Of a stretch of DNA of 64,000 nucleotides, positions 23,032 to 40,240 are shown piece after piece. The DNA lies in NCBI GenBank assembly GCA_030765125.1, contig JAVCDD010000015.1, positions 2,939 through 66,938 on the forward strand, in the 5' to 3' direction. Every line of letters starts with the position of its first letter. Position 1 is the first letter of the stretch. Source of the stretch: Candidatus Hatepunaea meridiana. GTDB lineage: Bacteria > Electryoneota > AABM5-125-24 > Hatepunaeales > Hatepunaeaceae. The notes beneath the pieces were generated by a model, which saw only the letters and a list, made by a program, of their open reading frames with translations, was not told the DNA's origin and searched no databases. The position numbers and the translations under genes were made by a program.

Positions 23032-23070
23032 TTTTCTCTCATTTTAATGATTCTGCTGAAAAACATCCTA

Positions 23071-23283: not shown

Positions 23284-23319
23284 AATGATCGCAGGCAGAG
23301 ACACCTACGCTACTATCAA

Positions 23320-25158
23320 TTATCGGATTAAAACCATCCGGTTTACAATATTTTCAGTATTGCCCGCATCATATTCAATGGAAATATTGTATAAATAGAT
23401 ACCTGAAGCAACTTCCAAACCACTTCTGTCAAGACCGTTCCAGGTAACACGGTTAGCGCCTGCTTGCTGCATACCGGAAACAAGTTCCTTAACGAGCCTG
23501 CCTTTGATGTCGTAGATCCTTAAGCTGACTTCACCGGATTGCGGAATGCTATAGCTGATCTCGGTTGATGAGTTGAAAGGATTCGGATAGATACCCATTG
23601 CTGCAAATTCCGTAGGCAGAGCTTCGTCGGACAAACCAACGCCCAATGCTGTGCCGACTAACGGGATTTCGAGTATATTCTCGTCGCGATCATTGGATTC
23701 GATGAGCAGGCTGGCTTCATATCTTTGCTCTTCAAGGGGTGCGAAACTGATAGTGACGACGCGGGATGAATCCGGTGAAAGCTCAAACTCCTGCTCTAAA
23801 TCATTGATACGGAACGGTATATTATCCGGGTGAATCGTCCAGCTCTCAATCAGAAGCGGCAGCACACCGATATTCATTATTTCCAGTTCCAATTCCGCTC
23901 TCTCATCAGGTTGAATATTTACAAATTCAACGGTATCGGGTTCAACGTTGATGTTACATTGCGGGTAGAAGAATGCGCCGATGTCGGGGAAGGTGCCATC
24001 AGGGTCAGGGTCTGACTCGGGGTCGCCAGCGTCGATGCAAGGCGAGTCATCGGACAGGTGGAAGTCGTCGTTATCATGATCGATGAATTGAGGATCTTCA
24101 TGAATTACATGATCACTGTACTCCTCAAGCCATTCGCCTTCAATATCGCAATAGGATAAGATCACCTCGTCAACATCTTCATAGAAGTGAACTTGAGGTC
24201 CTTCATAGGCACGGTTTCCCCAGAATATACAGTTCGATACAATACTCCATTCATTAGCCACAACACAGATACCACCACCAATTTCACTTTCGTTAAATAC
24301 GATAGTATTTGAATGGAATCGAAAAGGTCTCGCAGAATGATCAAAATATATAGCTCCACCCGCGTTTCCAGCACTATTATATGAAAAAACGTTATATTGC
24401 ACTTCTGCTAAGGTGAGATGACCCAAGCTTAATGCACCGCCATTGTAACCTGCTTGGTTACCGATAAACATATTTCCTGTTATGGTAAATTCCCCGAAAG
24501 GTGATTCCCAAGTCCCGATTGCTCCACCAGACCCTAAAGCGGAATTATCAATAAACAGGTTCTCAACAACCCTGATATCTCCGGAAAACCTAATACTCAA
24601 TGCTCCACCGCTGACTCCACAATTCTCTATAAATAAGTTTCTTTCAATAGTTACGGGATGGCAAAAATATGTGCATATAGCTCCACCCCACCAGTAACAT
24701 TGATTGTCTGAAAAAGTGGAGTTACTGATATTCAATTCGGCTTCCTCACAATAAAGAGCACTGCCTCGGACGTAGTTATCTTCATCACCTACGATGCAAT
24801 TACTGACTATACAATATCTTAATGTTACCACAGCACCACTATCAGCCCTGATACCACACCAGAATTCCTCGTCTTCATCGGAATGAAAAACTATGGAGTC
24901 ATCTACCGCTCCCTCTGCAAGAAGTTCACCATAAACCAACAGCGAATAGGGACCATTGAAATTTATTATTACACCGGGTTCAATCATCAGTGTATCTTCA
25001 GCGGGGATAAAGATGGTGTCCAGGACGACTACAGGCGAATCGTCGATAGTCCATGTACCACTTACTTCGTCTTCAACTTCAATTGCGTATAGATTATTTA
25101 ATGCAAGTATGCAGAATATTGACAAGGCGACGCAAATAAGTATTTGTTTTTTGTTCAT
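23320..25158 (-). CDS. T9SS cargo protein paralog with pbH1-type parallel beta-helix repeats, conserved Ig-like module and T9SS CTD
   Basis: 612 aa with glycine-rich pbH1-like repeats (SGGALSIRFSGDIRVVENLFIDNSALGSGGAIGT), the conserved module shared with 19739.. and 21391.., and CTD ...GIYLYNISIEYDAGNTENIVNRMVLIR. Confidence 0.75.
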   Translation of the reverse strand: MNKKQILICVALSIFCILALNNLYAIEVEDEVSGTWTIDDSPVVVLDTIFIPAEDTLMIEPGVIINFNGPYSLLVYGELLAEGAVDDSIVFHSDEDEEFWCGIRADSGAVVTLRYCIVSNCIVGDEDNYVRGSALYCEEAELNISNSTFSDNQCYWWGGAICTYFCHPVTIERNLFIENCGVSGGALSIRFSGDIRVVENLFIDNSALGSGGAIGTWESPFGEFTITGNMFIGNQAGYNGGALSLGHLTLAEVQYNVFSYNSAGNAGGAIYFDHSARPFRFHSNTIVFNESEIGGGICVVANEWSIVSNCIFWGNRAYEGPQVHFYEDVDEVILSYCDIEGEWLEEYSDHVIHEDPQFIDHDNDDFHLSDDSPCIDAGDPESDPDPDGTFPDIGAFFYPQCNINVEPDTVEFVNIQPDERAELELEIMNIGVLPLLIESWTIHPDNIPFRINDLEQEFELSPDSSRVVTISFAPLEEQRYEASLLIESNDRDENILEIPLVGTALGVGLSDEALPTEFAAMGIYPNPFNSSTEISYSIPQSGEVSLRIYDIKGRLVKELVSGMQQAGANRVTWNGLDRSGLEVASGIYLYNISIEYDAGNTENIVNRMVLIR

Positions 25159-25167
25159 TTCGTCAGC

Positions 25168-25631
25168 TCCATTTTTATTATTCCTGTTTCGTAGCCTGCT
25201 TGTATTTTGCAGAAATAGACACCTGAATTTACAAGGATTCCATTGCCATTTACACTATCCCATATTAAGTTATTCGGTATTGTTCTTTGCGCTCTCAATT
25301 ATGCCGTCTTCGAGGAAATCATCGCATAGTTCAAGTTGATCTACTGCTGGAGTGAGGGTATATTAGACAAGGTACGCTCCGGTGCTCATTACCTTTATGG
25401 TCTCACAATCCTGCGACGAGATCAGGTTATTGATTTGAGTTTGAGTGACAGAGCCCTCGAATTTTACCATAATTTCGGTGCCAACAAGCTTATAGTTACA
25501 CCCTGGTAGACCTCATACCATTCCCCTTCAATCTGCGTATACTCACGCCCATTGAACGTGTACGCTTCCGCGGTCTGTACGCTGAAAAAGACCGCAATAC
25601 AGATGATTAAAACATTCCTCAAGTTCTTCAT
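25168..25631 (-). pseudogene. decayed T9SS cargo gene: intact signal peptide ORF followed by frameshifted CTD fragments
   Basis: MKNLRNVLIICIAVFFSVQTAEA... (part of ORF 25464..25724), then out-of-frame pieces YTLTPAVDQLELCDDFLEDGIIESAKNNTE and WDSVNGNGILVNSGVYFCKIQAGYETGIIKMELTK. The latter resembles the CTD consensus W.G.N..G..VSSGVYF...K. Confidence 0.4.
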
Positions 25632-25961
25632 TGTTCCTCTCCGTTCTAATTTGTTTAGCGCCAAAAGGTTATTTAAACAAACCACACCTATATTCATAAT
25701 ACTAAAAGAAAAAGGACTTGTCAAGCATTATTTTCATTTTTATGGGATATTATTACCCCAAAAATCGATGAATATTGGATTTGTATCTATGGTATTCATT
25801 TGCATAGAATCCCCTATATGCTCGTAAACTTTCTAACATTCAATTTTCAAACTTATATTTCACTTGACTTCATATCCTATTAAATCTATATTATATAACT
25901 GATTTAGTCTTAACTCAAACTCCAATCATCCTGCTGTATTCCGAAGTAAGGGAGTTTTTCT

Positions 25962-25995
25962 TAGTTGTGTCAGGTGTTAACACCTGACACAACTA
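25962..25995. promoter_or_regulatory. perfect 34-bp palindrome ~65 bp upstream of the giant LVIVD gene start (candidate operator)
   Basis: tagttgtgtcaggtgttaacacctgacacaacta, exact dyad symmetry around GTTAAC. Confidence 0.4.
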
Positions 25996-26059
25996 AATAT
26001 AGAACGCTTCGTTGTGCGGAATACGCCGGCGGAGCTTTTTTATTATAAGGGAAGAAACA

Positions 26060-29000
26060 ATGGTTCACCGATTTGCTTTAATTCTCTCGCTGATGGTTTT
26101 CTGCTTAACCATCACAACCGTATCAGCCCAGGAAATCATCGAAGTAGGAGACTTTGATACACCAGGGCTGGCTAAGGACGTTGTCGTCGCCGGTAACCAC
26201 GCATACATTGCGGATTACGGCAGCGGTCTGCGTATCATCAACATATCCGATCCGGAAAACCCTGATGAAGTCGGGGCTTTTGACACTCAGGGGAATGCTT
26301 GGGGCGTCGTCGTTTCCGGTGATTTCGCTTACATAGCTGACTACGCAAGCGGATTGCGTATAGTCAATATTTCCGATCCGGAAAATACCAATGAGGTTGG
26401 TAATTACGACACGCCAAGTCACGCCTTTAGCGTCGTCGTTATAAACAGCCTTGCTTATATCGCAGATGGCGAGGAGTCCGGATTACTCATAATAAACGTC
26501 GCCGATCCGGCAAATCCCGACATAGTTGCAAGCTTTGAGACTGAGGGAACCGCCTTCGACGTTTCCGTTGTCGGTAATCTTGCATACATCGCAGACGCTG
26601 GTTTTCTGCGCATTATTGATGTGTCTGATTTAGACAATATGGTCGAAGTCGGAACTATTGAAACTCGGGGTACCGCCAAAGGCGTAGCTGTCGCCGGTGA
26701 TTATGCTTACATCGCTGATGGCGAAAGCGGGTTGCGTATTATCAACGTATCCGATCCGGAGAACCCGGAAGAAGTGGGGGACTTCAATACACCCGACGAT
26801 GCCAGCGATGTTACCGTTGTCGGCAGCTATGCCTACGTAGCTGACGGTGAAAGCGGTCTTTACATAATTGATGTTTCTAATCCGGAGGAACCGGAAGAAG
26901 CAGGTTCTTTCGATACCCCGAACGAGGCGATAGGCGTCACCGGAAATGATGAATATATATACATAGCAGATAACACAAGCGGTCTGCTTATTCTAAACGT
27001 ATCCGAATTTCACATTCCTATTATTGCCGTTGCCCCTGAAGCCCTTGACTTTGAAGAGGTCGAGTTAAACCAGAGTGCGGAATTGACTTTGACCATCAAT
27101 AACGAGGGTGGTAATGATCTGACCATTTCGGATGTCTCATTAACTGGAGACCACTTCAGCGTTGACTTTGAAGATGAAGTTGTCGTTGAACGAGATGAAG
27201 ACTATGAATTAACGGTAACCTTTGCGCCTGAGGAAATCGGTGAACTACGGGATACTTTAATAATTACATCCAACGATCCTGATAACGGTGAAGTAACCAT
27301 ATTCCTGAGTGGTGTTGGCGTAGGACCGGTTATTTCCATTGATCCCGAGACGATGGTCTTCGGTCAGGTGTTAGTCGGTGAAGCTGGTGAGATGATTATT
27401 ACAATCAGCGACTCTGGAAACACTAATCTAATTGTGTCTGATATTTTAGTTGAAGGCGATTATTTCTACGTTGATTTCGAGCAGGAGTTAGTAATTGAAC
27501 CGAACGGCGCCGCTGAAGTGTCGGTCAGCTTTGCACCTGAAGAATTCCGCGATTGCCAGGGAACACTGACTATTACATCCAACGATCCTAATCGGGATGA
27601 GATAGTTATCAACTTAACTGGTTCTGGGGTTGCAGTAGCCATCCGCGAGGTCGGCGCTTTCAATACGCCGGGCGAGGCGCGGGGCATTGCGGTAGTTGGT
27701 GATATTGCTTACATTGCAGATGGTCAAACCGGTTTGATTATTTTCGATATTTCCAATCCTGCCGAACCGGATTCTCTTGGAGCCTGTGATACGCCTGGTG
27801 ATGCATACTACGTCATCGTCGTAGGTGAATATGCTTACATCGCCGATCAAACAGGCGGTTTAAGGGTAATTAATGTTTCCGATCCAACTGAACCCGAAGA
27901 AGTCGGATACTACGATACTGCCGGTGAAGCCAGAGGCGTTGCTGTGCTTGGGAACTATGCTTATATCGCAGACGGTGATCCAGGTCTCATAGCAATAAAC
28001 ATCTCTAATCCTGAAGATCCGGAGCAGGTAGGAGCATTCAATTCTCCCGGAACGGCAAGGGGTGTCACAATCTCAGGGGAATACGCTTATGTATCGGATG
28101 GAGGAAGCGGTCTTCGTATCGTAGACTTGTTTGATCCACGCAGCCCGGAAGAAATTGGCTCTTTCGATACACCGGGGTGGGCGTTGAGTTCCTTTATCGC
28201 TGGAGATTACGCTTATGTTGCCGACTGGCGCAATGGTATGCAGATCATTGATATATCCGATTTGGAAAATCCTGATTTGGTGAGCTCTTTTGATACACCG
28301 GGTGAAGCTTTGAACCTTGCAATTGTTGGTAATTACGTTTATATTGCTGATTTAGGTAGTGGTCTGCGAATGATCGACGTATCCAACCGTCGTCAACCTG
28401 AAGAAGCCGGATACTTTGATACACCCGGTAACGCAAGAGGCGTTGCCGTAATTGGTGACTATGCTTACGTAGCTGATGGACCGGGTGGATTGCGTATCCT
28501 CGATGTATCTAACATCGGCGAACCCTTACCGTTTATCTCAGTAGCGCCTTTAGAATTGGACTTCGGTGAGGTGATGCTGAATGAAGGTACGCAGTTGGCT
28601 ATAACAATCAGCAATGTTGGCGGTGCTGATCTGACCATTTCAGAAGTTGTCAGCAATTTTGGATGCTTTACAACCGATTTCGAGGATGAGATTGTCCTTG
28701 AACCAGATGAAAGTGAAAATGTAATGGTTACGTTTACACCGGATCATCACGGACTATTTGAAGGAACTATAACCATTACTTCAAATGATCCATTTACCGA
28801 AGAAGTAACTGTTACTCTGCGTGGAAACGGAATTATCGGCGTTATCCATCATATTGGTTTCTTTGATACGGAAGGGCATGCACTGGATGTGGTAATTGAA
28901 AATAATTATGCCTATGTGGCTGACCGGCGAGCTGGAATGAGCATAATCAGTATTGCCGATCCGTTTAATCCGAGTGAAGTTGGATACATCGATTCACCGG

Positions 29001-31234
29001 GTGACGCACGCGGTGTTGCCGTCCAGGGTGATTATGCTTATATAGCGGATTGGAATCAAGGATTGCGTATTATACTCGTCAGCCGTCCAACCCTTCCGCG
29101 CGAAGCTGGATTCTTTGTTACCGATGGAAATGCTCGAGGTGTCGCCGTAGCCGGGAACTATGCTTATGTTGCAATGCAGGAGAGCGGTCTTAGTATCATT
29201 GACATATCCGATCCCGCAGAACCCAGCGAAGTTGGCTCTTTCGATACACCGGGAGCTGCCTATGCCGTTGCCGTTGTTGAAGACTATGCTTATGTCGCTG
29301 ACGGAACAGGTGGACTTAGGGTGATAAATGTTTCAGATCCGCAAGAGCCTCGGGAAGTCGGCGCTTATGATACTGAGGGTCAATCTTATGGCATTACAGT
29401 TGATGGTGAGTTAGCATACGTTGCTGATGGTGACGGCGGTTTACGCATCATTAACATATCCGATCCGGAACATCCTGAAGAAGTGGGAGCATATCAAGAA
29501 TTGGAGCAATCCTGGGACGTTGCTGTTGAAGACGGCTTTGCATACATAGCGGACTATGAAAACGGTCTGCGCTTAATAGACGTTTCCGATCCCGAAAATC
29601 CCAACGAGGTCGGAGACTATGACACTCCTGGACTAGCTTACGGAGTCGCTGCCGCAAACGAGCATTACGCTTACGTAGCAGATTATGATAGCGGATTACG
29701 TATCCTTGACGTATCTGAAGTCATCGGTTGGGAAGCGCAAGATCCTGCTATTATCGTTTCACCGGATGAGTTAATCTTCGATCAGGTTGAGATCGGTCTG
29801 AATCGTAATCTCAACATTACTATTCGCAATGAAGGCAATGCTGATTTGATTGTATCCAATATTTATGTTACTGACAATGCTTTCAGTGTAGATTTCCCTG
29901 ATCAGCTCGCTATAGAGCCCGGCAACAGCGAAGAGATTGTGGTTACTTTTGCACCTGACAGATTCAGCGAATCCGAAGGAGACCTGATTATCGAATCCAA
30001 CGATCCGAATGGCGACGTATCAATCTCTTTGATCGGTTCAGGTGTTTACATTGTGATTAGCGAGATGGGGTATTTCGATACTGAAGGAAATGCTAAAGAC
30101 GTCGCAATCGTGGGTGATTACGCCTATGTAGCTGATGGTGAAGCGGGAATAAGCATAATAGATATTACCGATCTGCAAAACCCCAATGAAGTAGGAACAT
30201 TAGATACACCGGACGAAGCTTTTGCAATTGAGGTAGTTGGTGATTATGCTTATGTGGCAGACAAAGAGAGCGGGTTGCGCGTCATTAACATCTCAAATCC
30301 TGAGCAACCGGAAGAGGTTGGTTCTTATGACACACCGGGAATGGCAAGAGAAGTTGTTGTTGTCGGCAACTATGCTTACGTTGGCGATGGCGCTGATGGT
30401 TTCCGAGTGATTGACATATCAACTCCTGACGACCCACGTGGTACAGGCATCTATAATACACCTGACGAAGCCTGGGGAATCACCATTATCGGTGAATACG
30501 CATACGTAGCGACAAGGGAAAGAGGGTTGCGTATTCTAAACATCTTCGATCCGCAACGTCCAAATGAGGTTGGATTCTACGATACGCAGAGATACGCCCG
30601 CGACGTCAGCGTGTCCGGTGACTATGCTTATGTGGCAGACGGCACCGGCGGACTGGTCGTGTTAAATATTTCTGATCCGGAGCATCCTCGTAAAGAGGGC
30701 GAATTATTAACTATGGACGAAGCTCGCAGTATCACCATCCGTGGAAATTTTGCATTCGTCGCCGATAAGGAAGGTGGATTGCGGATTATTGATATCTCGC
30801 ATCCGGATGATCCGGAAGAGATCGGATTCTATAATACTTCAGACGAGTCTTTCGGAGTTACTGTTGTGGATGACAGATATGCCTACGTAGCGGACGGAGA
30901 GAACGGACTGCGAATACTTGACGTTTCAAACATCCACGGCGTAAACGATCAACAGGATAATCCTATTCCAACGGAATTCAATTTATCGGCAGCCTATCCG
31001 AATCCGTTCAACTCGACTATGAATATATCGTATGACCTGCCCGTCCTGACAAATATTTCATTGCAGATATTCGATGTCAACGGTAGAGTTACAGCAACGC
31101 TTTATTCAGGTGCAAGAGCGCCGGGGCGTTATCATTCAATTTGGAACGGACGCAATTCACCATCAGGCATTTACTTGATTAGGTTGAATTCATCCGATTT
31201 CAATGCTGTACGTAAAGTAGTACTAACGAAATGA
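26060..31234 (+). CDS. giant secreted LVIVD-repeat protein: four ~7-bladed LVIVD beta-propellers separated by choice-of-anchor-D Ig-like domains, with T9SS C-terminal sorting domain
   Basis: 1724 aa from the ATG at 26060 (track ORF begins at an upstream TTG). Signal peptide MVHRFALILSLMVFCLTITTVSAQ. Contains >25 copies of a ~40-aa unit G.YAY[IV]AD...GL[RV]I[IV][DN][IV]SDP.NP.EVG.[YF]DTPG.A.GV.V. Ig-like segments such as ELTLTINNEGGNDLTISDVSL...ITSNDPDNGEV appear four times. C-terminus AAYPNPFNSTMNISYDL...IRLNSSDFNAVRKVVLTK. Confidence 0.8.
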   Translation: MVHRFALILSLMVFCLTITTVSAQEIIEVGDFDTPGLAKDVVVAGNHAYIADYGSGLRIINISDPENPDEVGAFDTQGNAWGVVVSGDFAYIADYASGLRIVNISDPENTNEVGNYDTPSHAFSVVVINSLAYIADGEESGLLIINVADPANPDIVASFETEGTAFDVSVVGNLAYIADAGFLRIIDVSDLDNMVEVGTIETRGTAKGVAVAGDYAYIADGESGLRIINVSDPENPEEVGDFNTPDDASDVTVVGSYAYVADGESGLYIIDVSNPEEPEEAGSFDTPNEAIGVTGNDEYIYIADNTSGLLILNVSEFHIPIIAVAPEALDFEEVELNQSAELTLTINNEGGNDLTISDVSLTGDHFSVDFEDEVVVERDEDYELTVTFAPEEIGELRDTLIITSNDPDNGEVTIFLSGVGVGPVISIDPETMVFGQVLVGEAGEMIITISDSGNTNLIVSDILVEGDYFYVDFEQELVIEPNGAAEVSVSFAPEEFRDCQGTLTITSNDPNRDEIVINLTGSGVAVAIREVGAFNTPGEARGIAVVGDIAYIADGQTGLIIFDISNPAEPDSLGACDTPGDAYYVIVVGEYAYIADQTGGLRVINVSDPTEPEEVGYYDTAGEARGVAVLGNYAYIADGDPGLIAINISNPEDPEQVGAFNSPGTARGVTISGEYAYVSDGGSGLRIVDLFDPRSPEEIGSFDTPGWALSSFIAGDYAYVADWRNGMQIIDISDLENPDLVSSFDTPGEALNLAIVGNYVYIADLGSGLRMIDVSNRRQPEEAGYFDTPGNARGVAVIGDYAYVADGPGGLRILDVSNIGEPLPFISVAPLELDFGEVMLNEGTQLAITISNVGGADLTISEVVSNFGCFTTDFEDEIVLEPDESENVMVTFTPDHHGLFEGTITITSNDPFTEEVTVTLRGNGIIGVIHHIGFFDTEGHALDVVIENNYAYVADRRAGMSIISIADPFNPSEVGYIDSPGDARGVAVQGDYAYIADWNQGLRIILVSRPTLPREAGFFVTDGNARGVAVAGNYAYVAMQESGLSIIDISDPAEPSEVGSFDTPGAAYAVAVVEDYAYVADGTGGLRVINVSDPQEPREVGAYDTEGQSYGITVDGELAYVADGDGGLRIINISDPEHPEEVGAYQELEQSWDVAVEDGFAYIADYENGLRLIDVSDPENPNEVGDYDTPGLAYGVAAANEHYAYVADYDSGLRILDVSEVIGWEAQDPAIIVSPDELIFDQVEIGLNRNLNITIRNEGNADLIVSNIYVTDNAFSVDFPDQLAIEPGNSEEIVVTFAPDRFSESEGDLIIESNDPNGDVSISLIGSGVYIVISEMGYFDTEGNAKDVAIVGDYAYVADGEAGISIIDITDLQNPNEVGTLDTPDEAFAIEVVGDYAYVADKESGLRVINISNPEQPEEVGSYDTPGMAREVVVVGNYAYVGDGADGFRVIDISTPDDPRGTGIYNTPDEAWGITIIGEYAYVATRERGLRILNIFDPQRPNEVGFYDTQRYARDVSVSGDYAYVADGTGGLVVLNISDPEHPRKEGELLTMDEARSITIRGNFAFVADKEGGLRIIDISHPDDPEEIGFYNTSDESFGVTVVDDRYAYVADGENGLRILDVSNIHGVNDQQDNPIPTEFNLSAAYPNPFNSTMNISYDLPVLTNISLQIFDVNGRVTATLYSGARAPGRYHSIWNGRNSPSGIYLIRLNSSDFNAVRKVVLTK

Positions 31235-31257
31235 GATGTAATGTTAGCTGTCATCCC

Positions 31258-31416
31258 ACCGTGGTTGACAGCCTGTGAACAGAGCCCGTTCAGAAAAGAA
31301 ATGCTGAACGGGCTCTGTTATGTAAAACGGAGAGAGCGGATATTCCTGTCCACCACATTATTCATCTTCAAACCAACCCAGCTGTCAGGGCGCCGTTCCT
31401 GACAGCAATACAACAA
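31258..31416. repeat. cluster of REP-like hairpins (CTGTCA family plus a perfect 16-bp stem)
   Basis: ctgtcatcccaccgtggttgacag; aacagagcccgttcag...ctgaacgggctctgtt; ctgtcagggcgccgttcctgacag. Confidence 0.55.
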
Positions 31417-31670
31417 TCAAGCAATTAAGCAATCATATCTTCTTAGTATTTCCACTATTCATTTGACATCTAACTCAAATAACAATAAATTAACATAAAA
31501 TCATTTTGCAGTGAAGCTGGGCGAATTAAGAGTGCAAAAACAAAAAACAAACACCTTCTTAATGAAAAGCTGCTTATCCGGTTTTCATTTCTTTTAAAAT
31601 AGCATCTTATCAACCTTGACACCGGTAATACTGAATAGTATATTCACTGAAGCCTATAGAAAGTATTAAT

Positions 31671-31777
31671 CAGTAGCGTAGACGTACCCGCCTGTGGAAA
31701 CACTTCTAGCAGGCAGAAGGGAGGGGGGGGCCGCTCCTAATTATTTACTTTCGCAGGCAGGGACGTCTACGCTACTG
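31671..31777. repeat. inverted repeat CAGTAGCGTAGACGT...ACGTCTACGCTACTG enclosing a G8 homopolymer tract
   Basis: cagtagcgtagacgtacccgcctg ... caggcagggacgtctacgctactg with gggagGGGGGGGGcc at 31723..31730, 30 bp upstream of the OMP gene start. A related half-site lies at ~23291. Confidence 0.5.
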
Positions 31778-31806
31778 TATTTTCAATCAACCAACGGAGT
31801 TACCTT

Positions 31807-33099
31807 ATGAGAAAACTAATCGTTATTTTCCTTTGCGCACTGCTGTTTACAGTTTCAAGTGCATTCAGCCAATTACTTACCGATTACACAGATGTAGGCA
31901 ATGGCGCTCGCGCGGCTGCAATGGGTAATGCCTTCACCGGGCTCGCAGATGATGCCACGGCTGTTGCATGGAATCCTGCCGGTCTAACGCAATTGGGTAT
32001 GCCTGAGTTCAGCATCGTTGGACGCTACAATCTGGGATACTCAACAATGAAATGGTCAAATGTCGAATTTCTCGATAAATTCAGCATTTCTCAATCATCT
32101 CAGTTTGACATCAACTTTTTAAGTTTCGTCCTTCCAATAAATACAGAAAGTATCGGGCTTGGAGTATTAGCGGATATCGGTATCTCCAAGTTTGTTCCTG
32201 CGATAGCTTATCGTACAATGTATGACTGGGCTTTCAAGCAGAAGAGAACCCGAAAATACAGTGATGACGATACAGAAATAGAAATAGTTGAAGATATTAA
32301 GCAAAAAGGCGGCATTAAGGTGCTTTCTACTGCATTCGCAACCGAATTTGGACGTCTCTCCGGTGGTATGACATTAAACTTTATCAAAGGCGACCTTGAA
32401 TATAAATACGAACATAAGCAGGACGGTCAAATTCAAGATTCTGACAACTACAATGTCGAGGACTACAAAGGCAGGTCCGTTGACTTTGGTCTTTCATTGG
32501 ACGGCACCTGGATTGGTAATAGCGGTGGAAGAACTGGGATAGTACTCGGAGCGAAGCTATCCCCTGGGTACGTCCGAAGCAATGTTTACGTAGACGCCAA
32601 TGATAATCGTACTAAGCGCGAACTGAAAATTCCATATTTCTACACTTATGGCGCTGCCGTGCTATTTAGTGAAAGCTTTACGGTAACCGTTGACTATCGA
32701 TCTCATAATTGGTCTGATTCGGAATCCCGGAACGAAGTGAATGGAGCGTGGACCGATTGGGCAGAGTATACAAACAATGACCTGAATGCATGGCATTTTG
32801 GAATGGAGAAATTAAACCTCACAACTGGTGCATCATTTCGGTTGGGCTACTATAATAAACCGTATGTTGACGATGACGCCAATGGAGACCAGATTGTAAA
32901 TGAAGTTTTTACAATAGGAATGGGATTTGCCAAAAAGAACTTCAGTCTGGACTTTTCGTCACAGTTCGAACTACACAGCTATTTATGGCGTAAAATTGAC
33001 GAATCTGAATATACAGACAAAGGCGGTGAATTAAGCTTTTCTTCAAGCTTGATTATCTACATTGACTTTATGGACATATTTGATAAACTGCAGAGGTAG
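31807..33099 (+). CDS. FadL-like / PorV-PorQ-type beta-barrel outer-membrane protein
   Basis: 430 aa with signal peptide and N-terminal motif GNGARAAAMGNAFTGLADDATAVAWNPAGL, typical of the FadL/PorV-like OMP superfamily. It sits immediately after the T9SS cargo genes. Confidence 0.5.
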   Translation: MRKLIVIFLCALLFTVSSAFSQLLTDYTDVGNGARAAAMGNAFTGLADDATAVAWNPAGLTQLGMPEFSIVGRYNLGYSTMKWSNVEFLDKFSISQSSQFDINFLSFVLPINTESIGLGVLADIGISKFVPAIAYRTMYDWAFKQKRTRKYSDDDTEIEIVEDIKQKGGIKVLSTAFATEFGRLSGGMTLNFIKGDLEYKYEHKQDGQIQDSDNYNVEDYKGRSVDFGLSLDGTWIGNSGGRTGIVLGAKLSPGYVRSNVYVDANDNRTKRELKIPYFYTYGAAVLFSESFTVTVDYRSHNWSDSESRNEVNGAWTDWAEYTNNDLNAWHFGMEKLNLTTGASFRLGYYNKPYVDDDANGDQIVNEVFTIGMGFAKKNFSLDFSSQFELHSYLWRKIDESEYTDKGGELSFSSSLIIYIDFMDIFDKLQR

Positions 33100-33129
33100 C
33101 GTCTTATCTTGTTCAACTCAATAAAATAT

Positions 33130-33230
33130 ACAAAATCAGTAGAAGCGACACTCTTGTCGCTTGAATGTTAGATTTACCACAACTTTGTAAGCGACGCAAG
33201 CGACAAGAGTGTCGCTTCTACTGATTTTGT
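33130..33230. mobile_element. MITE-C (33-bp TIRs ACAAAATCAGTAGAAGCGACACTCTTGTCGCTT)
   Basis: Perfect terminal inverted repeats flank a 35-bp centre; a second copy with the same TIR core lies at 40149..40240. Confidence 0.55.
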
Positions 33231-33277
33231 AACTCTTTAATAATTGAAGAATAAACGCTATTTTTAAAGGGAGTATC

Positions 33278-36200
33278 ATGAAAACAAACAAGAACTTATT
33301 CCTCATTTCAGCGCTTATAGCAATAATATGCTTTCAAGTAAACACTGCCGGCGCTGCAAACTGGTACGATCTATATGCACGCGGAACCAGACTGATGAAG
33401 AAGGAAAACTACGACAAGGCAGCCGAATGCTTTGCTAATGCGCTGAAACAGAACGATTCGGATAATCCGCGTGTTCGTACTTCAGGAATGCGCTTTATTA
33501 AATACTACCCACACAGAGAACTGGGTATATGCTATTACAATCTGGGTCGGTATTCAGAAGCTATGGAACAATTACGGGTTTCAATCCGGCAGTCTTCTAC
33601 CTCCAGTGCAAAGAGTTATCTGTCATTGGCTGAAAAGCAGATGGTTAATGTTCAAAATCAGATTAAGCAAGACAAGATAAAACAGGACGCTCTCGCCAGG
33701 GAAGCTCAAGAACGGGAAAAACAAGAAAGAATTAAAAAGAACGAACTCGCCAGGATAGAGTCGTCTGATCTGGGAGTCGCGGGTCAAGAATCCCACATAG
33801 AGATTACTCCATTGAAGAGGTTGAAGGAACAACCTGGATTGGTTGTCAGTATGGCATTCAGTCCCGATAGCAAATACTTAGCAAGCAGAAGCGGCAGCAA
33901 CATCCAACTATGGAATACTGAAACCGGTTCAAGCGCCGGGAAACTTACCGGGCATTCAGATGGTGTCTGGGATCTATGCTTCAGCGGGGATGGACAGCTT
34001 GCAAGCGCCAGCTTTGATGAAACTTCCAGGTTGTGGTCTATTGTAAACAAGCAATCAACCAGAACAATAACCGGACATTCGGCAAAGGTTCGGGCTGTTG
34101 CTCTCAGCCCTGACGGCAAGAGGCTCGCAAGCGGTGACGGGGATGGTATTATTAAACTATGGGATATGCAAAACGGACAGGAATTGAAATCGTTCAATCA
34201 TTATAACCGATGGATCAATACACTTGAGTTTAGTCCAAATGGATCCATACTTGCGAGCGGAGATGGCAATGGGACAATCAAACTGTGGAATATATATAAC
34301 GGTGAAGAGATTAAAACGCTTAAAGGACATTACGAAAGAGTAGATGTAGCATTCAGTCCGGACGGAAAGTATCTCGCCAGCGGTAGCAAAGACACAAAGA
34401 TTAAAATATGGGATGTTGAGAACGGCAATGTGATCAGAACATTGGAGGGACATACTTCCTCTGTCAATTCGATCTGCTTCAGTCCGGACGGCTTTTGGCT
34501 GGCAAGTGGAAGTGGGAAATGGGACGGTGGAGGCGAGAACAATTCGGTCAGGATCTGGTTAGTTGGCAGCGGTCAGGAAGTTAGAAAAATAAAAGCCTAC
34601 AATACTGTCTATTCAGTTGCATTCAGTCCGGATGGCTCTATGCTCGCCGCTGGAAGCGGGGATTATAGCACTGCCAAAGGTGAAGTCGAACTGTGGCGGG
34701 TTAAAATGCACAAACCGGAATTCGGTCTTCCTCCAAACCTGTTTGCCGAACTTAGCTTTGAAGATGACAATGGTAACGGTATACTCGATGCGATGGAATC
34801 AGCGCTGTTGGAAGTAACCCTCTATAACAAAGGGAAAGGTACTGCCCATCTTCTGCAGATTTGTATTGAGGACGATCAATATGATCCTGAACTGAAAATC
34901 GGAGGGAATGTAGTCTGGGAGTTACCCTCTAAAAATCAGACGAAAGTCACTATTCCTATTAGAACAGGCATGGACCTGAAATCTGCAAAACACCGGTTTA
35001 AAATCAGTGTTCTCGAGTACTTCGGATATGATATGGATCCAGCATACCTATCGCTCAACACGCAGGAATATTCGCCTCCAAAACTTGTCTATTCCGGTAT
35101 GGACATTGATGATTGGAGTGAGGGAACCGGCGGCAATGATGAGGATGGTCAGTTGCAGGCTGGTGAACTGGTTAAAATGAAGATTGTTGTGCAGAATATT
35201 GGTCAGGAGCCTGCGCTTAATACGAAATACTCCGTCAGAAGCGATGATAATAATATACGCCTCAAAGAAGGATACGGCACACTCGGCACAATAAAACCAG
35301 GGGAAGTCAAGGAATTTTGGATCACCATCAGTCCAAACAAACGTGTTACAACTGAGGATGATCTGCCCGTTTATCTGACGATGACTGAATCGATAGGCAA
35401 AGGCAAACTTTTAAATTTCCAGTTACCGATAAAGCTCAACCAGAAGCCTCCCCAAATGAATGTTGTCGAGGTCAAACCGGATTTGTCGCGACTCCAGCAA
35501 CAGATCGCAAAGTTTGAATACACATCTTCTAAATTCAAGACCCGTATTAAAAAGAAAGAAGATGTATGGGCTGTCAAGCGGTCTCGTTCGAGTCGACCGA
35601 ATTCTACAGCAGTCGTGATAGGCGTAGAAAATTATAAAAAACTTGCGCCGGCGCCATTTGCTGCAAGAGACGCTGATCTAATGGAAAAGTATTTTAGGGA
35701 GCTGCTTGGTGTTGATAATGTTGTTCTGTATAAGGATAACGACGTCTCAGGTATGGTGTTCGATGATATTTTCAACCCTGACAATGGTGAACTTCAGACG
35801 TCAATTATCCAAGGGGAAACAGAACTGTTTGTATATTACTCCGGTCACGGCATCCCGAATAAAACCGGTTCAGAGGTATATCTTGTTCCTTCTGATGTAA
35901 AAATTCACCGGCTTGAAGAACAGGGATACAGCTTGAACAAGTTCTATAAGAATCTGAGCGAGTTGGGCGCTAAAAATACGATGGTGATACTCGATGCCTG
36001 TTTCAGCGGTGGGTCGCGTTCAACCGGCAGTATAAAAGAAGAGAATCTCGTTGCACACAAGGCTGTTGGACTAAAGATCAAGGAGCCGTGGCGGACTTAT
36101 AAGAACTTTACGGTAATAAACTCGTCAACCGGTAGTGAGACCTCGTTGGGATTTGACCAGTCGGAGACAGGGCTGTTTACCTACTATCTGGCATTAGGAC

Positions 36201-36358
36201 TGAAAGGCAAAGCTGATGACAACAATGACCAAAAGGTAACGGTCGGTGAACTCAAACGATACGTAATCGCAAACGTAAAGGAAACGTCGAAGAAGATGTT
36301 AGGTTTACAGACGCCGCAATTCTACGGTGATGAGAGTCGGGTGTTGGTGGAGTATTAA
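33278..36358 (+). CDS. secreted multidomain protein: signal peptide - TPR - coiled coil - WD40 beta-propeller - Ig/CARDB-like domains - C-terminal caspase-like (peptidase C14) domain
   Basis: 1026 aa. About 8 WD40 repeats (TGHSDGVWDLCFSGDGQLASASFDETSRLWS; GHTSSVNSICFSPDG...). C-terminal caspase His/Cys dyad contexts YYSGHGIPN and MVILDACFSGGS. Confidence 0.7.
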   Translation: MKTNKNLFLISALIAIICFQVNTAGAANWYDLYARGTRLMKKENYDKAAECFANALKQNDSDNPRVRTSGMRFIKYYPHRELGICYYNLGRYSEAMEQLRVSIRQSSTSSAKSYLSLAEKQMVNVQNQIKQDKIKQDALAREAQEREKQERIKKNELARIESSDLGVAGQESHIEITPLKRLKEQPGLVVSMAFSPDSKYLASRSGSNIQLWNTETGSSAGKLTGHSDGVWDLCFSGDGQLASASFDETSRLWSIVNKQSTRTITGHSAKVRAVALSPDGKRLASGDGDGIIKLWDMQNGQELKSFNHYNRWINTLEFSPNGSILASGDGNGTIKLWNIYNGEEIKTLKGHYERVDVAFSPDGKYLASGSKDTKIKIWDVENGNVIRTLEGHTSSVNSICFSPDGFWLASGSGKWDGGGENNSVRIWLVGSGQEVRKIKAYNTVYSVAFSPDGSMLAAGSGDYSTAKGEVELWRVKMHKPEFGLPPNLFAELSFEDDNGNGILDAMESALLEVTLYNKGKGTAHLLQICIEDDQYDPELKIGGNVVWELPSKNQTKVTIPIRTGMDLKSAKHRFKISVLEYFGYDMDPAYLSLNTQEYSPPKLVYSGMDIDDWSEGTGGNDEDGQLQAGELVKMKIVVQNIGQEPALNTKYSVRSDDNNIRLKEGYGTLGTIKPGEVKEFWITISPNKRVTTEDDLPVYLTMTESIGKGKLLNFQLPIKLNQKPPQMNVVEVKPDLSRLQQQIAKFEYTSSKFKTRIKKKEDVWAVKRSRSSRPNSTAVVIGVENYKKLAPAPFAARDADLMEKYFRELLGVDNVVLYKDNDVSGMVFDDIFNPDNGELQTSIIQGETELFVYYSGHGIPNKTGSEVYLVPSDVKIHRLEEQGYSLNKFYKNLSELGAKNTMVILDACFSGGSRSTGSIKEENLVAHKAVGLKIKEPWRTYKNFTVINSSTGSETSLGFDQSETGLFTYYLALGLKGKADDNNDQKVTVGELKRYVIANVKETSKKMLGLQTPQFYGDESRVLVEY

Positions 36359-36573: not shown

Positions 36574-36706
36574 TATAATGGTAAAATATGGGGACAGCAG
36601 TGATACTTGTCCCCATATTTACAAAGATCACATTAGCCTCGACATCGTTAGTCCGGTCAACATCGGAGAAGATATATAGAATTATTTTCTCGGAATATCT
36701 CTTTAT

Positions 36707-36891
36707 CGGTTATGCCTTTAGCTCAGCAATGTATAAACCTAATAACACCGGAGTAGCGAAGCTTGCTGCGCGTCCACTTAACAATACCGGAAGTAGTAAA
36801 GCTTGCTGCGTTCTTGCACTGTGGCGCATGCGTGTCTGCTTGCGAGCGCGCAGCAAGCTGCGCTACTCCGGCTGAGCTAAAGGCATAACCG
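36707..36891. mobile_element. MITE-E (TIRs CGGTTATGCCTTTAGCTCAGC) flanked by a 9-bp direct repeat TCTCTTTAT (target-site duplication)
   Basis: TSD copies at 36698..36706 and 36894..36902. Internal sub-palindrome ccggagtagcgaagcttgctgcgcg...cgcgcagcaagctgcgctactccgg. A second copy begins at 63841. ORFs 36588..36875 and 36723..36977 inside it are spurious. Confidence 0.6.
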
Positions 36892-37247
36892 ATTCTCTTT
36901 ATTTCTTTCCAATCATTAAAAATCCAATCTAAAATCTCACACGCTACCCGTTTGATCTCTTTTAGCATGATGATCATCTTTTAGAAGGCGATAGAGGCGA
37001 TAACGAAGTTGCGTCCATTACCGGTGACAAGGGATTTAGCACACCTTATGCGTTGAGATACTTGATTTTCCATCGTGTGCTATCTATATTGTGATAAGTG
37101 GAAAAACACAAACCACTATACAGGCAGGAGCGCGACTATGCCACCATTATTGCAGGGATATGAAAATCCCAGGACAGTATCCTTCGGGCGCCTCCAAACT
37201 TTTCATGTGGCACGGTCAGGCAATGACCAGAAAAAGAGAGGAATAAC

Positions 37248-38540
37248 ATGGCTAAAATAGAAGGATTCAGAATTCAAAATTATCGTGTGTTGAAAGACGT
37301 GACACTCGGAAAACTTTGGAATATGCAACAAGCACAGCCACTAACGCCGTTGACAGCCGTTATTGGGAAAAACGGTGTCGGCAAGAGCTCTCTGTTTGAT
37401 GCATTCGGCTTCCTTGCTGATTGCTTGAAATTGGGTGTCGAAGAAGCTTGTGATACCAAAGGGCGGGGAGGGTTTGATCGTATTCGCTCTCAAGGGAGTG
37501 ATGATCCGATTGAGTTCCAGATATATTACAAGCAAGATGGAAATGCCCGACCGATCACCTATGAACTTGCCATTGACACAGATAAAACTGGTCGTCCTTA
37601 CGTAAAACAGGAACGTTTTCGTCAAAGACGTAAAGGACAAAATCGTGGCTGGCCCTTCTCGTTTCTTATGTTAATCGAAGGCAAAGGAGCCGTGTGGAAA
37701 GGCGAGGAATTGGGACTACAGAGTGACGAAGGTAAGAGTCCTCTCAACTTTATACAGTTGATGGAGATAATTAATGCAGAATCACCAAAAGAGGAGAGCC
37801 ACGAAACGGAGGTTATTGAACTGCAAGACAAGCGTAAGCTTGGTATTGCAACCCTTGGTGCGCTGAAGCAACATCCTCGAATATCGGCTTTTAGACAGTT
37901 CATCGAAGGATGGTATTTGAGTTACTTCACTCCAGACGCAGCCCGCAGCCTGCCCTTGGCGGGTCCACAAAGGCACTTGAGTATCCACGGTGACAATCTT
38001 GGCAATGTTGTCCAGTTCATGCAGCGTGAACATCCTAAACGTTTTGCGAGTATCCTCAATCGCATTGCTGAAAAAATCCCTGGAATTGACAAGATTGATA
38101 CTAATCAAAGTCAGGATAAACGATTACTTCTCCGTTTTAACGACAAAGGTTTTAATGACCCTTTTTACGCTCAACAAATGTCTGATGGCACACTAAAAGT
38201 CTTTGCCTATCTGCTTTTATTGGAAGATCCAACACCGCCACCTTTCATCTGTATTGAGGAGCCTGAAAACGGTCTTTATCACAAACTCCTTGAAACTCTT
38301 GCAACTGAATTCCGTACACATGCAACCGGAAGGAAAAACGCACCACAACTCTTTATCACAACTCATCAACCATATTTTGTCGATGCACTCGCACCGGAAG
38401 AGACATGGTTACTTGAAAAAGGTTCGGATGGTTTTTCGACTATCCGCAGAGCAAGTGATGATGAAACCGTCAACGCAATGGTGGAGGAGGGATTACCTCT
38501 TGGGAGTCTCTGGTACAGCGATTACCTTGATGCAAGGTGA
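37248..38540 (+). CDS. ABC-type AAA ATPase (AAA_21/AAA_15-like; OLD/AbiLi/RloA-like ATPase component)
   Basis: 430 aa with Walker A VIGKNGVGKSSLFDA, ABC signature-like QMSDGTLKVFAYLLLL, Walker B PFICIEEPENGLY and H-loop FITTHQPYF. The stop overlaps the start of the next gene (ATGcaaggTGA). Confidence 0.7.
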   Translation: MAKIEGFRIQNYRVLKDVTLGKLWNMQQAQPLTPLTAVIGKNGVGKSSLFDAFGFLADCLKLGVEEACDTKGRGGFDRIRSQGSDDPIEFQIYYKQDGNARPITYELAIDTDKTGRPYVKQERFRQRRKGQNRGWPFSFLMLIEGKGAVWKGEELGLQSDEGKSPLNFIQLMEIINAESPKEESHETEVIELQDKRKLGIATLGALKQHPRISAFRQFIEGWYLSYFTPDAARSLPLAGPQRHLSIHGDNLGNVVQFMQREHPKRFASILNRIAEKIPGIDKIDTNQSQDKRLLLRFNDKGFNDPFYAQQMSDGTLKVFAYLLLLEDPTPPPFICIEEPENGLYHKLLETLATEFRTHATGRKNAPQLFITTHQPYFVDALAPEETWLLEKGSDGFSTIRRASDDETVNAMVEEGLPLGSLWYSDYLDAR

Positions 38541-39198
38541 ACCAGTGCACTTTGAAATACTTGTTGAAGATAAGTCAGGGAAAATCGCATTGGAATCTTT
38601 TTTGGGAAAAATACTTAGCCCAAACGGGCAAGATCACACCTATAAAGTAATTTCCTACAAAGGAATTGGACGCATTCCAAGAAATCTAAGAGGAACAACA
38701 GATCCGCAGAAGCGGATTCTTCTGGATCAATTGCCCAGGTTACTCAGAGGATATGGGAAAAGTTTCCGAGAATATCATCATGCAGTTGTGGTGGTCGTTG
38801 ACCTTGATAATAAGAATTGTCTAAACTTCAAACAAGAACTCCTCAATGTGTTATATGCCTGCAATCCAAAGCCAAAAACACTGTTCAGAATTGCGATAGA
38901 GGAAGGCGAAGCATGGTTATTGGGAGATCGTAACGCCGTAAAAACTGCCTACCCACATGCAAAAGTGCGGGTATTAGACGCTTATGTACAAGACAGCATT
39001 TGTGGTACGTGGGAAAAGCTTGCAGATGCAATCTATCTGGGTGGATCACAAAAACTTAAACAAATGGGATACCCCCTTACGGGACAGGCTAAGTGCGAAT
39101 GGGCGAAAACAATAGCTCCCCACTTAGATGTGGAGAATAATCAGTCGAAAAGTTTCCAAGTTTTTCGTGATGGAATCAGAAATCTGGCGGGATCGTGA
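38530..39198 (+). CDS. small TOPRIM-like protein (DUF4276/RloB-like), partner of the upstream ATPase
   Basis: 222 aa from the ATG at 38530; the track ORF 38203.. carries a spurious N-terminal extension inside the ATPase gene. Conserved Glu in strand 1 (HFEILVEDKSG) and DxD motif (AVVVVVDLDNKN), consistent with a TOPRIM nuclease fold. Confidence 0.55.
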   Translation: MQGEPVHFEILVEDKSGKIALESFLGKILSPNGQDHTYKVISYKGIGRIPRNLRGTTDPQKRILLDQLPRLLRGYGKSFREYHHAVVVVVDLDNKNCLNFKQELLNVLYACNPKPKTLFRIAIEEGEAWLLGDRNAVKTAYPHAKVRVLDAYVQDSICGTWEKLADAIYLGGSQKLKQMGYPLTGQAKCEWAKTIAPHLDVENNQSKSFQVFRDGIRNLAGS

Positions 39199-40148: not shown

Positions 40149-40240
40149 GAAAAATAGTAGAAGCGACACTCTTGTCGCTTTGGCAATGTCTCTGAAACTC
40201 GAAAGCCCAAGCGACAAGAGTGTCGCTTCTACTATTTTTC
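40149..40240. mobile_element. MITE-C second copy
   Basis: TIR gaaaaatagtagaagcgacactcttgtcgctt ... aagcgacaagagtgtcgcttctactatttttc, followed by the (CAACATYA)n tract at 40278..40314. Confidence 0.55.

Follow-up and report, generated by a model that had tools for sequence, protein, structure and literature searches.

The closest described relatives of the gene analyzed here are the orthocaspases and bacterial metacaspases of peptidase family C14, such as Microcystis MaOC1 and Geobacter GSU0716 (PDB: 3BIJ). In orthocaspases, the p20 domain comes first and additional domains are usually C-terminal; metacaspases sensu stricto (types I–III) have a p10 domain with a conserved Ca2+-binding Asp at its N terminus, and the acidic S1-pocket residues of TbMCA2 are Asp95 and Asp211 (PMC6426788). 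Among the accessory domains of prokaryotic C14 proteins, WD40 and TPR are reported to be the most frequent, and possible signal peptides have been mentioned for these proteins too (PMC3501461). In the paracaspase MALT1, Ig domains flank the caspase domain, with Ig3 following it.

The gene lies in a 64-kb window (the whole stretch of DNA that was analyzed). Its ORF, 33278–36358 on the + strand, starts with ATG and encodes 1026 amino acids, as the preliminary description had it and as read from the sequence and its translation. The product is identical to NCBI MDP8237586.1, a "caspase family protein" of Candidatus Hatepunaea meridiana; a full-length homolog search yielded only this identity match (P0121), and the list was dominated by unrelated WD40 proteins. 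The gene alone, already deposited under that name, is unsurprising: it is an ordinary member of a large, uncharacterized family of exported caspase-like proteins. The surrounding region is rich in secreted and T9SS surface proteins, and six other window proteins carry a T9SS sorting domain. Between the caspase gene and an upstream PorV/PorQ-like ORF lies an inverted repeat with 55-nt arms. An Rfam MIR6140 match at 33096–33261 was rejected; it is far under the gathering score and reflects a long palindrome. The domains of the protein follow one another in the order signal peptide, TPR, long helix, WD40 propeller, Ig, Ig, linker, and C14, with AF2 pLDDT values of 82.8 for the core and 87 for the full-length model:

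33266..33273, + strand: Shine-Dalgarno-like AAAGGGAG, read directly, ending 5 nt before the ATG
33278..33355, + strand: predicted Sec/SPI-type signal peptide, residues 1–26, MKTNKNLFLISALIAIICFQVNTAGA, with cleavage predicted after AGA and before A (heuristic)
33356..33595, + strand: TPR-like helical module, residues 27–106 (Pfam, and AF2 helices of low confidence)
33596..33787, + strand: long K/E/Q-rich helix or linker, residues 107–170 (AF2 helix 109–163)
33797..34717, + strand: seven-bladed WD40 β-propeller, residues 174–480 (Pfam, motifs, AF2 propeller 174–477)
34730..35071, + strand: Ig-like β-sandwich 1, residues 485–598 (AF2 strands 488–596; Foldseek)
35078..35425, + strand: Ig-like β-sandwich 2 (CARDB-like), residues 601–716 (AF2 strands 603–715; sub-threshold Pfam)
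35426..35584, + strand: basic linker, residues 717–769, with the family motif A[KR]FEYxSxKF (alignment A1)
35585..36355, + strand: peptidase C14 (caspase/metacaspase-fold) catalytic domain, residues 770–1026

A C-terminal caspase-like domain had been proposed from the YYSGHG and ILDACFSG contexts. Both motifs are present, and Pfam Peptidase_C14 (PF00656) matches residues 777–1016 with 56.1 bits in the whole protein and 61.1 bits in the isolated domain, above the cutoff of 21.4. The caspase-hemoglobinase α/β fold is present in the AF2 model as an α/β caspase domain at residues 773–1025. A phmmer search of the caspase domain against the PDB gave no match and a profile of close relatives (A1) returned only noise; a profile of diverse family domains (A3) reached metacaspases at 1e-6. 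Profile alignment to the solved structures of Yca1 (PDB: 4f6o), C. glabrata metacaspase-1 (PDB: 7qp0), and MALT1 (PDB: 3v4o) located the following positions in and around the active site, listed with two loops of the same domain:

35669..35671, + strand: Asp798, candidate for the first acidic residue of the S1 pocket, unchanged in 32 diverse domains
35846..35848, + strand: predicted catalytic His857 (YYSGHG), invariant, aligned with HYSGHG of the yeast metacaspase Yca1 and YYAGHG of MALT1
35993..36001, + strand: Asp906-Ala-Cys908 (LDACFSG), predicted catalytic Cys908 and second acidic S1 residue Asp906, invariant and aligned
36008..36073, + strand: flexible loop, residues 911–932, GGSRSTGSIKEENLVAHKAVGL, where caspases have their intersubunit linker
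36215..36253, + strand: EF-hand-type Ca2+-binding loop DDNNDQKVTVGEL, residues 980–992, found by pattern within the caspase domain

Cys908 aligns with the Cys of Yca1 FDSCHSG and of MALT1 LDMC, and His857, Cys908, Asp798, and Asp906 are all invariant even in relatives as distant as about 28% identity. In the locus set behind the neighborhood and motif statistics, which was retrieved by YSGHG and DACFSG patterns, the apparent invariance of the dyad is inflated. The alignments show His857 and Cys908 as the predicted catalytic dyad. In the "CINDA" motif of Yca1 and C. glabrata metacaspase-1, the Asp lines up with Asp798, which is equivalent to TbMCA2 Asp95; Asp906, two residues before the Cys, lines up with the Asp of "DSCHSG" and is equivalent to Asp211. 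Both remain invariant across the 32 diverse domains. The P1 pocket, which the preliminary description had singled out for comparison, matches that of metacaspases: at the level of sequence alignment, Asp798 and Asp906 are shown to sit where the S1 pocket turns acidic in metacaspases and MALT1. Because these pocket residues are acidic, cleavage after Arg or Lys, and not after Asp, would be expected.

The profile alignments to solved metacaspases end at about the Cys. The stretch that follows Cys908 (NSS..ETS, GLFTYY) completes the fold, and the EF-hand-type loop stands in place of the p10 Ca2+ feature. The pLDDT of loop 911–932 is below 50 in the core model and 66–81 in the full-length model. 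The loop contains R and K and may be a site of autoprocessing, and the basic A[KR]FEY linker could likewise be a candidate autoprocessing or pseudosubstrate site. NCBIfam NF047832 (caspase_w_EACC1) scored 70.5 bits, below its cutoff of 140, and neither EACC1 nor any other effector-association domain was found in the window protein with Pfam or NCBIfam.

The sequence DDNNDQKVTVGEL fits the 12-residue EF-hand loop pattern (PROSITE PS00018). The pattern was matched at the same position in 202 of 246 family members, although it also has an appreciable background rate, with 45 matches among 182,615 residues of unrelated WD40 proteins. E991 is invariant in 55 diverse representatives, helices 966–978 and 989–1006 flank the loop in the AF2 model, and the profile weakly matches EhCaBP (E 0.38). 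Conservation of an EF-hand-type loop inside the caspase domain suggests possible control by Ca2+.

Upstream of the catalytic domain, the two Ig/CARDB-like segments reported previously are modeled by AF2 as two β-sandwiches. The conserved family core begins with the first (GLPPNLF...FGYDMDPAYL), which is matched by ASH/HYDIN/CEP192-type Ig domains in Foldseek and in which E507, N517, G519, G521, E580, and G583 are invariant. In the second, the window protein has Pfam CARDB and HYDIN Ig matches just under threshold at about 625–700; of 55 relatives, 32 have a CARDB call. The linker motif reads QIAKFEYTSSKFKTRIKKK in the window protein; R271, F272, E273, Y274, and K278 (A1 numbering) are near-invariant in the linker of alignment A1.

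The 552-amino-acid Ig-Ig-C14 core defines a family of 1168 50%-identity clusters at E≤1e-30, present in at least 576 species genomes, mostly of FCB-group phyla, with neighboring phyla also represented, and common in Bacteroidota-related bacteria. The window core is 52–66% identical over 97–100% of its length to over 100 proteins, and representatives align over core positions 5–552, up to their own C termini. These data show that the Ig-Ig pair, the basic linker, and C14 form the invariant C-terminal catalytic unit that defines the family. Of 233 full-length family members, 222 have C14 at the C terminus and 209 pass the signal-peptide heuristic; a C-terminal caspase combined with export, at first considered unusual, is instead the family norm. 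We found no biochemical or other experimental work on any Ig-Ig-C14 family member in the literature.

The signal peptide itself, already suspected at the start of the protein, has two lysines (K2 and K5), a hydrophobic core of 13 residues (maximum of 3.12 over Kyte-Doolittle 10-mers), and A-G-A at −3 to −1; calls for the window protein and its relatives are heuristic. The TPR-like helices were also recovered, as Pfam TPR_2/TPR_1 matches at residues 32–105 (TPR_2 44 bits versus a cutoff of 27; TPR_16 also matched), and AF2 places N-terminal helices at 5–105, with low confidence over about 24–89. Only one other sampled family member (P0326) has the TPR segment. The Lys/Glu-rich stretch (K10 E10 Q9 R5 over residues 107–185), given as a coiled coil in the preliminary description, is modeled as a single long helix. 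A WD40 array had been described correctly, although with about eight repeats; seven FSPDG-type motifs and seven Pfam WD40 repeats over about 190–480 (E 1.3e-65) give seven blades, in a propeller with AF2 pLDDT above 95. No NTPase (NACHT/NB-ARC/AAA) was among the Pfam or NCBIfam matches of the window protein, and residues 1–190 consist of TPR and helices only.

Among 55 extended representatives, 13 from several phyla have an N-terminal WD40 fusion. In other family members this end is bare or consists of a PQQ/BamB-type propeller, SH3_3, or a further Ig domain. The same MAG encodes a paralog that aligns collinearly with the window protein through propeller and core, at 48% identity overall. Within the family, it is the N-terminal module that evolves fast and can be swapped.

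Recurrent neighbors were found at related loci. An exported DUF4384-like gene lies within 3 genes of the caspase gene in 33 of 81 loci, a second exported family of ~285 amino acids is nearby in 28 of 81, and one or the other is within 3 genes in 48 of 81. Homology of the ~285-amino-acid family to DUF4384 or to the Ig core was considered and rejected, with hhalign matching signal-peptide regions only. Some Bacteroidota relatives, at few of the 81 loci, directly follow genes for an ECF sigma factor and a putative anti-sigma factor. In the 64-kb window, tblastn and HMM searches for partner genes (DUF4384-like C1/C2, C3, C9, ECF sigma, Kelch C4, and the ~285-amino-acid family) gave nothing significant; the best score (8.2 bits, E 0.078) was to the upstream PorV-like ORF, without support from hhalign. 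Because the usual partners are absent from the window, the family context may not transfer to this gene.

On balance, we consider it fairly probable that the protein is a Sec-exported C14 cysteine endopeptidase of the metacaspase/orthocaspase/paracaspase type that processes envelope proteins at Arg or Lys, with TPR/WD40 modules for recruitment. It would act most likely in the periplasm or cell envelope, where the variable N-terminal part (TPR, long helix, and seven-bladed WD40) could serve as a family-typical plug-in bringing one particular substrate or partner protein to the protease, and the EF-hand-type loop might place activity under Ca2+ regulation. In relatives, the usual exported DUF4384-like partner, sometimes lying within an ECF-sigma/anti-sigma operon, suggests that envelope proteins are cut in a limited and regulated way, and speaks less for a cell suicide enacted in the cytoplasm.

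The same modules could instead form a ligand-gated extracytoplasmic switch, in which WD40/TPR senses a signal in the periplasm or from outside (a protein of an invader, a damaged component of the envelope, or a signal from kin), oligomerization activates C14, and an anti-sigma factor or DUF4384 protein is cleaved. The propeller blades best resemble the WD40 arrays of STAND NTPases (HET-E, cyanobacterial NACHT/NB-ARC) at about 40–46% identity, and such sensor arrays are their nearest matches (about 45%); swapping of the N-terminal module across the family and the position of some Bacteroidota relatives directly after sigma/anti-sigma genes also fit a sensor, and the full-length pTM of 0.66 suggests a defined packing between domains. 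We nonetheless regard a switch as rather unlikely, since the sigma-factor linkage is confined to few loci and absent from the window, and the blades are not unusually alike: identity from blade to blade is only 40% on average, and there is thus no sign of recent repeat diversification. Generalized to the whole family, the proposal becomes an extracytoplasmic apoptosome-type machine, whose swappable sensor (WD40, TPR, PQQ propeller, or SH3) would respond to a cue in the periplasm or at the surface and, with Ca2+, activate a metacaspase-like protease directed at anti-sigma factors or DUF4384-type partners; we think this quite improbable.

A role as one more bulk nutritional protease, a secreted peptidase feeding a proteolytic heterotroph, is similarly doubtful. 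Ca. Hatepunaea meridiana is described as a specialist in the breakdown of proteinaceous matter, equipped with many peptidases that bear signal peptides (PMC9324843), and that diet, together with a gene region full of secreted and T9SS surface proteins, would suit such an enzyme. Unlike its neighbors, however, the caspase protein has no T9SS sorting domain (Por_Secre_tail or CHU_C), its C-terminal 255 amino acids matching C14 and C13 only, and release from the cell is therefore not predicted. The conserved pairing with particular small exported proteins in relatives also suits a specific protease better than a bulk one. Enzymes of the metacaspase/paracaspase type process their targets with narrow specificity, which again speaks against a nutritional role.

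Some conflict systems use caspase-like proteases as effectors, and the preliminary description took the adjacency to an ATPase/TOPRIM module as a sign of a defense or death island. In such an island, a caspase-like effector and the adjacent ABC-ATPase/TOPRIM pair would together kill the phage-infected cell. The pair is on the same strand; PADLOC models match HEC-01A at 37248–38540 (657 bits) and HEC-01B at about 38545–39198 (311 bits), and the caspase gene ends at 36358. The caspase ORF itself matches no HEC model and only weakly matches the PADLOC "caspase" model (28.5 bits). HEC-01, a PADLOC candidate defense system, is defined as a two-gene system, for which defense was not detected in E. 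coli (bioRxiv 10.1101/2024.01.29.577857); DUF4276 is a TOPRIM-superfamily domain (PMC12065111). The 890-bp gap before HEC-01A holds a strong ~190-nt hairpin element (z −11). The idea that a 95-amino-acid ORF at 36588–36875 is the remnant of a partner gene was dropped; the ORF matches no family and overlaps this strongly folding element. No HEC-01A homolog occurs within ±6–8 kb of 90 related caspase loci, where the conserved neighbors are exported DUF4384-like proteins. The window protein, like most of its relatives, is predicted to be exported and would thus not share a compartment with an ATPase/TOPRIM pair that targets DNA or RNA, and it lacks the NTPase and effector-association domains noted above. 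With linkage not conserved, the island is largely refuted and we judge it very unlikely; the HEC-01 pair is an independent, self-contained neighbor, and its position beside the caspase gene looks coincidental. Least probable of all is a T9SS-linked transpeptidase, a clan-CD enzyme like the PorU sortase with the PorV/PorQ-like outer-membrane protein immediately upstream, given that the PorV-like assignment is a sub-threshold match, the 55-nt-arm inverted repeat separates the two genes, and no PorV-like gene was found near 90 relatives of the caspase gene.

The useful outcome is a picture of the family: more than 1000 clusters of exported metacaspase-like proteases with an invariant Ig-Ig-C14 core, an EF-hand-type loop, swappable modules, and recurrent DUF4384-like partners. 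It moves part of the debate over bacterial caspases as agents of programmed cell death toward envelope proteolysis, and it removes the false lead of an apparent caspase-nuclease defense island. Cultured hosts include Bacteroides sp. ET71 and Chryseolinea sp. T2. If the apoptosome-type reading were true, an unrecognized envelope signaling or envelope-suicide pathway would extend across FCB bacteria.

Set against the described systems, HEC-01 (ABC ATPase plus DUF4276/TOPRIM) has no protease component and describes the neighboring genes, not the caspase gene. MALT1 differs from the window protein in being a cytoplasmic eukaryotic signaling protease with a death domain and with Ig domains on both sides of the caspase domain; identity is only 16–20%, and no homology is implied past the level of the domain. 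With the metacaspase-NACHT/NB-ARC-WD40 (STAND) proteins of cyanobacteria, actinobacteria, and fungi, the window protein shares the joining of WD40 or TPR arrays to a caspase-like protease, but it has no NTPase or effector-association domain, its domain order is reversed, and it is predicted to be exported. Compared with the orthocaspases, it is remote at the sequence level, places C14 last, after two Ig domains, is predicted to be exported, and carries an internal EF-hand-type loop.

The caspase gene (33278-36358, plus strand) is the sole long reading frame in its interval; it starts with ATG just after AAAGGGAG and encodes a 1026-aa protein identical to NCBI MDP8237586.1, a 'caspase family protein' from Candidatus Hatepunaea meridiana. 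Pfam assigned TPR_2/TPR_1 to residues 32-105, seven WD40 repeats to ~190 to 480 (E 1.3e-65) and Peptidase_C14 to 777-1016 (56-61 bits; gathering score, 21.4), with slightly sub-threshold CARDB and HYDIN Ig matches at ~625-700. AlphaFold2 models were made for the core, the C-terminal Ig-Ig-C14 module (475-1026; pLDDT 82.8), and for the full-length protein (pLDDT 87.0, pTM 0.66).

Layout of the caspase protein in the AlphaFold2 models (residues)
5-105: helices, low confidence at ~24-89
109-163: single long helix
174-477: 7-bladed propeller
488-596 and 603-715: two β-sandwiches
773-1025: α/β domain

The propeller contains seven FSPDG-type motifs, which confirms seven blades. The N terminus (K2, K5, a hydrophobic core of 13 residues and AGA/A) is heuristically predicted to be a textbook Sec signal peptide. 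Pfam matches, models and N-terminal features therefore show that the preliminary description of a secreted TPR-WD40-Ig-caspase fusion was essentially correct, with the exception that there are seven WD40 blades and not about eight.

That description also considered a C-terminal caspase in an exported protein to be unusual, which did not hold at the family level. Residues 470-1026 used as a query retrieved over 1400 proteins. Identity to the query in the top 120 was 42-66%, and 52% or more in all but one, with at least 95% of the query aligned. Most of these are ~587 aa long and consist of a signal peptide and the core alone; others are ~800 aa, or ~880 aa with WD40. When 1.84 billion cluster representatives were scanned exhaustively with HMMER, 1168 matched at E≤1e-30 and 7173 passed the looser threshold of E≤1e-10; the best 150 matches almost always spanned ~5-552 and reached the protein C terminus. 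The core ends within 10 residues of the protein end in 222 of 233 full-length members, and 209 of the 233 pass the signal-peptide heuristic, so C-terminal placement and predicted export are the rule for the family. Nothing but a signal peptide precedes the core in 122 of these members; the rest carry N-terminal extensions of ~50-600 aa (at least 100 aa in 109).

WD40 was found in 13 of 55 extended representatives; others have a PQQ/BamB-type propeller, SH3_3, an additional CARDB domain or unknown segments. Proteins combining WD40 with the core occur in Bacteroidota, Neomarinimicrobiota, Elusimicrobia and unclassified MAGs. An earlier survey reported WD40 and TPR as the domains most often joined to C14 in prokaryotes and noted possible signal peptides (PMC3501461). 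Only one other sampled member, itself without WD40, shares the TPR-helix segment, and among the sequences sampled the TPR-helix-WD40 front end is confined to this MAG. Another contig of the same MAG encodes an 878-aa paralog, MDP8239228.1 (WD40-Ig-Ig-C14). Its WD40 and core are collinear with those of the caspase protein, overall identity is 48%, and the TPR-helix extension is absent. A genome scan placed relatives in 576 or more species genomes. Most are Bacteroidota; Ignavibacteriota/Chlorobiota, Cloacimonadota, WOR-3, Latescibacterota and others are also represented. Cultured hosts of family members include Bacteroides sp. ET71, Chryseolinea sp. T2 and Bacteroidetes bacterium UKL13-3. The Ig-Ig-C14 family is large and catalogued, yet apparently unstudied, and as a whole it is of greater interest than the single caspase gene.

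In sequence, the catalytic domain is remote from solved structures: PDB searches with the single C14 domain, then with a profile of close relatives, found nothing. Foldseek ranked MALT1 paracaspase first in the PDB (E 5.4e-10, TM 0.69); caspase-3 and Arabidopsis metacaspase 4 came next. A profile built from 32 diverse C14 domains of the family (A3) reached metacaspase-1 (7qp0, 1e-6), MALT1 (8e-6), Yca1 (4f6o, 1.2e-5), AtMC4 and AtMC9. Its alignments place YYSGHG on HYSGHG of Yca1 and YYAGHG of MALT1, LDACFSG on FDSCHSG and LDMC, and A-A-R-D-A on C-I-N-D-A, and identify His857 and Cys908 as the dyad; the proposed C14 domain with a His/Cys dyad is therefore upheld. The pocket residues also agree, as Asp798 and Asp906 align with TbMCA2 Asp95 and Asp211, which render the metacaspase S1 pocket acidic (PMC6426788). 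All four residues are invariant in 32/32 of the A3 domains. Motif statistics from the loci around relatives are biased, as these loci were retrieved by patterns that contain the dyad motifs. P1 specificity is probably for Arg/Lys. A flexible, R/K-containing loop (911-932) follows the catalytic Cys directly, where caspases have their intersubunit linker. A further loop, of EF-hand type (DDNNDQKVTVGEL, 980-992), is flanked in the AlphaFold2 model by helices 966-978 and 989-1006 and fits the PROSITE EF-hand pattern; the pattern fits at the same position in 202/246 relatives.

ORFs were called and clustered at 90 loci around relatives, and recurrent clusters were annotated; partner frequencies are lower bounds because many contigs are short. 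An exported DUF4384-like protein, comprising two mutually homologous clusters (hhalign probability 99%), lies within three genes of the caspase in 33/81 non-redundant loci, a second exported family of ~285 aa occurs at 28/81, and one or the other is present at 48/81. Several Bacteroidota share the order ECF sigma, ~225 aa, ~490 aa, DUF4384-like, caspase, ~285 aa, with fn3/Lcl_C or Kelch proteins coming next. The family combines an Ig-Ig-C14 core that is invariant with an N-terminal module that varies, has exported partners that recur and, by the heuristic, carries export signals across its members.

We propose that the protein would perform limited proteolysis after Arg/Lys in the cell envelope, that its EF-hand-type loop may place it under Ca2+ control, that it may process itself in the 911-932 loop or in the basic A[KR]FEY linker, and that its TPR and WD40 segments may recruit substrate or partner. 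That these segments instead make the protein a sensor-gated switch is unlikely. A nutritional role is more doubtful still. In its favour, the source organism, an Ace Lake MAG of the FCB-group phylum Ca. Electryoneota, has been described as a facultative anaerobe that degrades protein and has many peptidases for export (PMC9324843).

The window has ordinary chromosomal content (Mdh, QueA, PBP1A, transporters, two-component systems) and includes a T9SS surface-protein gene cluster at 17822-33099.

Genes flanking the caspase gene in the window
17822-25158, minus strand: four β-helix/Ig proteins with Por_Secre_tail
26012-31234, upstream of the caspase gene: 1740-aa T9SS cargo protein (LVIVD repeats, 26; Ig domains, four; T9SS tail)
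31807-33099, upstream of the caspase gene: 430-aa PorV/PorQ-like outer-membrane protein (sub-threshold match to NF033709, 50.8 bits; cutoff, 90)
37248-38540, 890 bp downstream of the caspase gene: HEC-01A ABC ATPase (AAA_21; PADLOC, 657 bits)
~38545-39198: HEC-01B (DUF4276/TOPRIM; PADLOC, 311 bits), likely GTG start at 38545

The candidate system HEC-01 consists of two genes, for an ABC ATPase and a TOPRIM protein, and did not protect E. coli when tested there (bioRxiv 10.1101/2024.01.29.577857); DUF4276 belongs to the TOPRIM superfamily (PMC12065111). By its PADLOC matches the candidate pair is complete, and its adjacency had suggested a defence or death island. HEC-01A, the PorV-like protein and the EamA transporter had no homolog at any of the 90 loci, and none of the usual family partners was detectable anywhere in the 64-kb window; the caspase/HEC-01 adjacency is therefore not conserved. 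The products are also predicted to occupy different compartments, and a joint defence island is very improbable.

An inverted repeat with 55-nt arms separates the PorV-like and caspase genes. A palindromic REP-like element with arms AGTAGAAGCGACACTCTTGTCGCTT, each a small hairpin by itself, occurs twice (33109-33251 and 40155-40234; chance expectation, 0 copies), bracketing the caspase gene, HEC-01A/B and the EamA transporter; a spurious Rfam MIR6140 match stems from the first copy. The 890-bp gap contains a ~190-nt nested inverted repeat (36705-36893; outer arms 23 nt and perfect, inner arms 25 nt; MFE -106 kcal/mol, z -11), with a further arm copy at 63839-63861 near the window end. A 95-aa ORF (36588-36875) overlaps this repeat; it matched no family and is unlikely to be a gene.

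A T9SS-linked transpeptidase is the least credible reading. The absence of a C-terminal sorting domain sets the caspase protein apart from T9SS cargo. Lacking an NTPase, it also differs from STAND architectures, and the EACC1-associated caspase model NF047832 scored 70.5 bits against a cutoff of 140. By score, intact fold and aligned dyad the protein belongs to family C14, and its acidic S1 residues would place it in the branch with basic P1 specificity.
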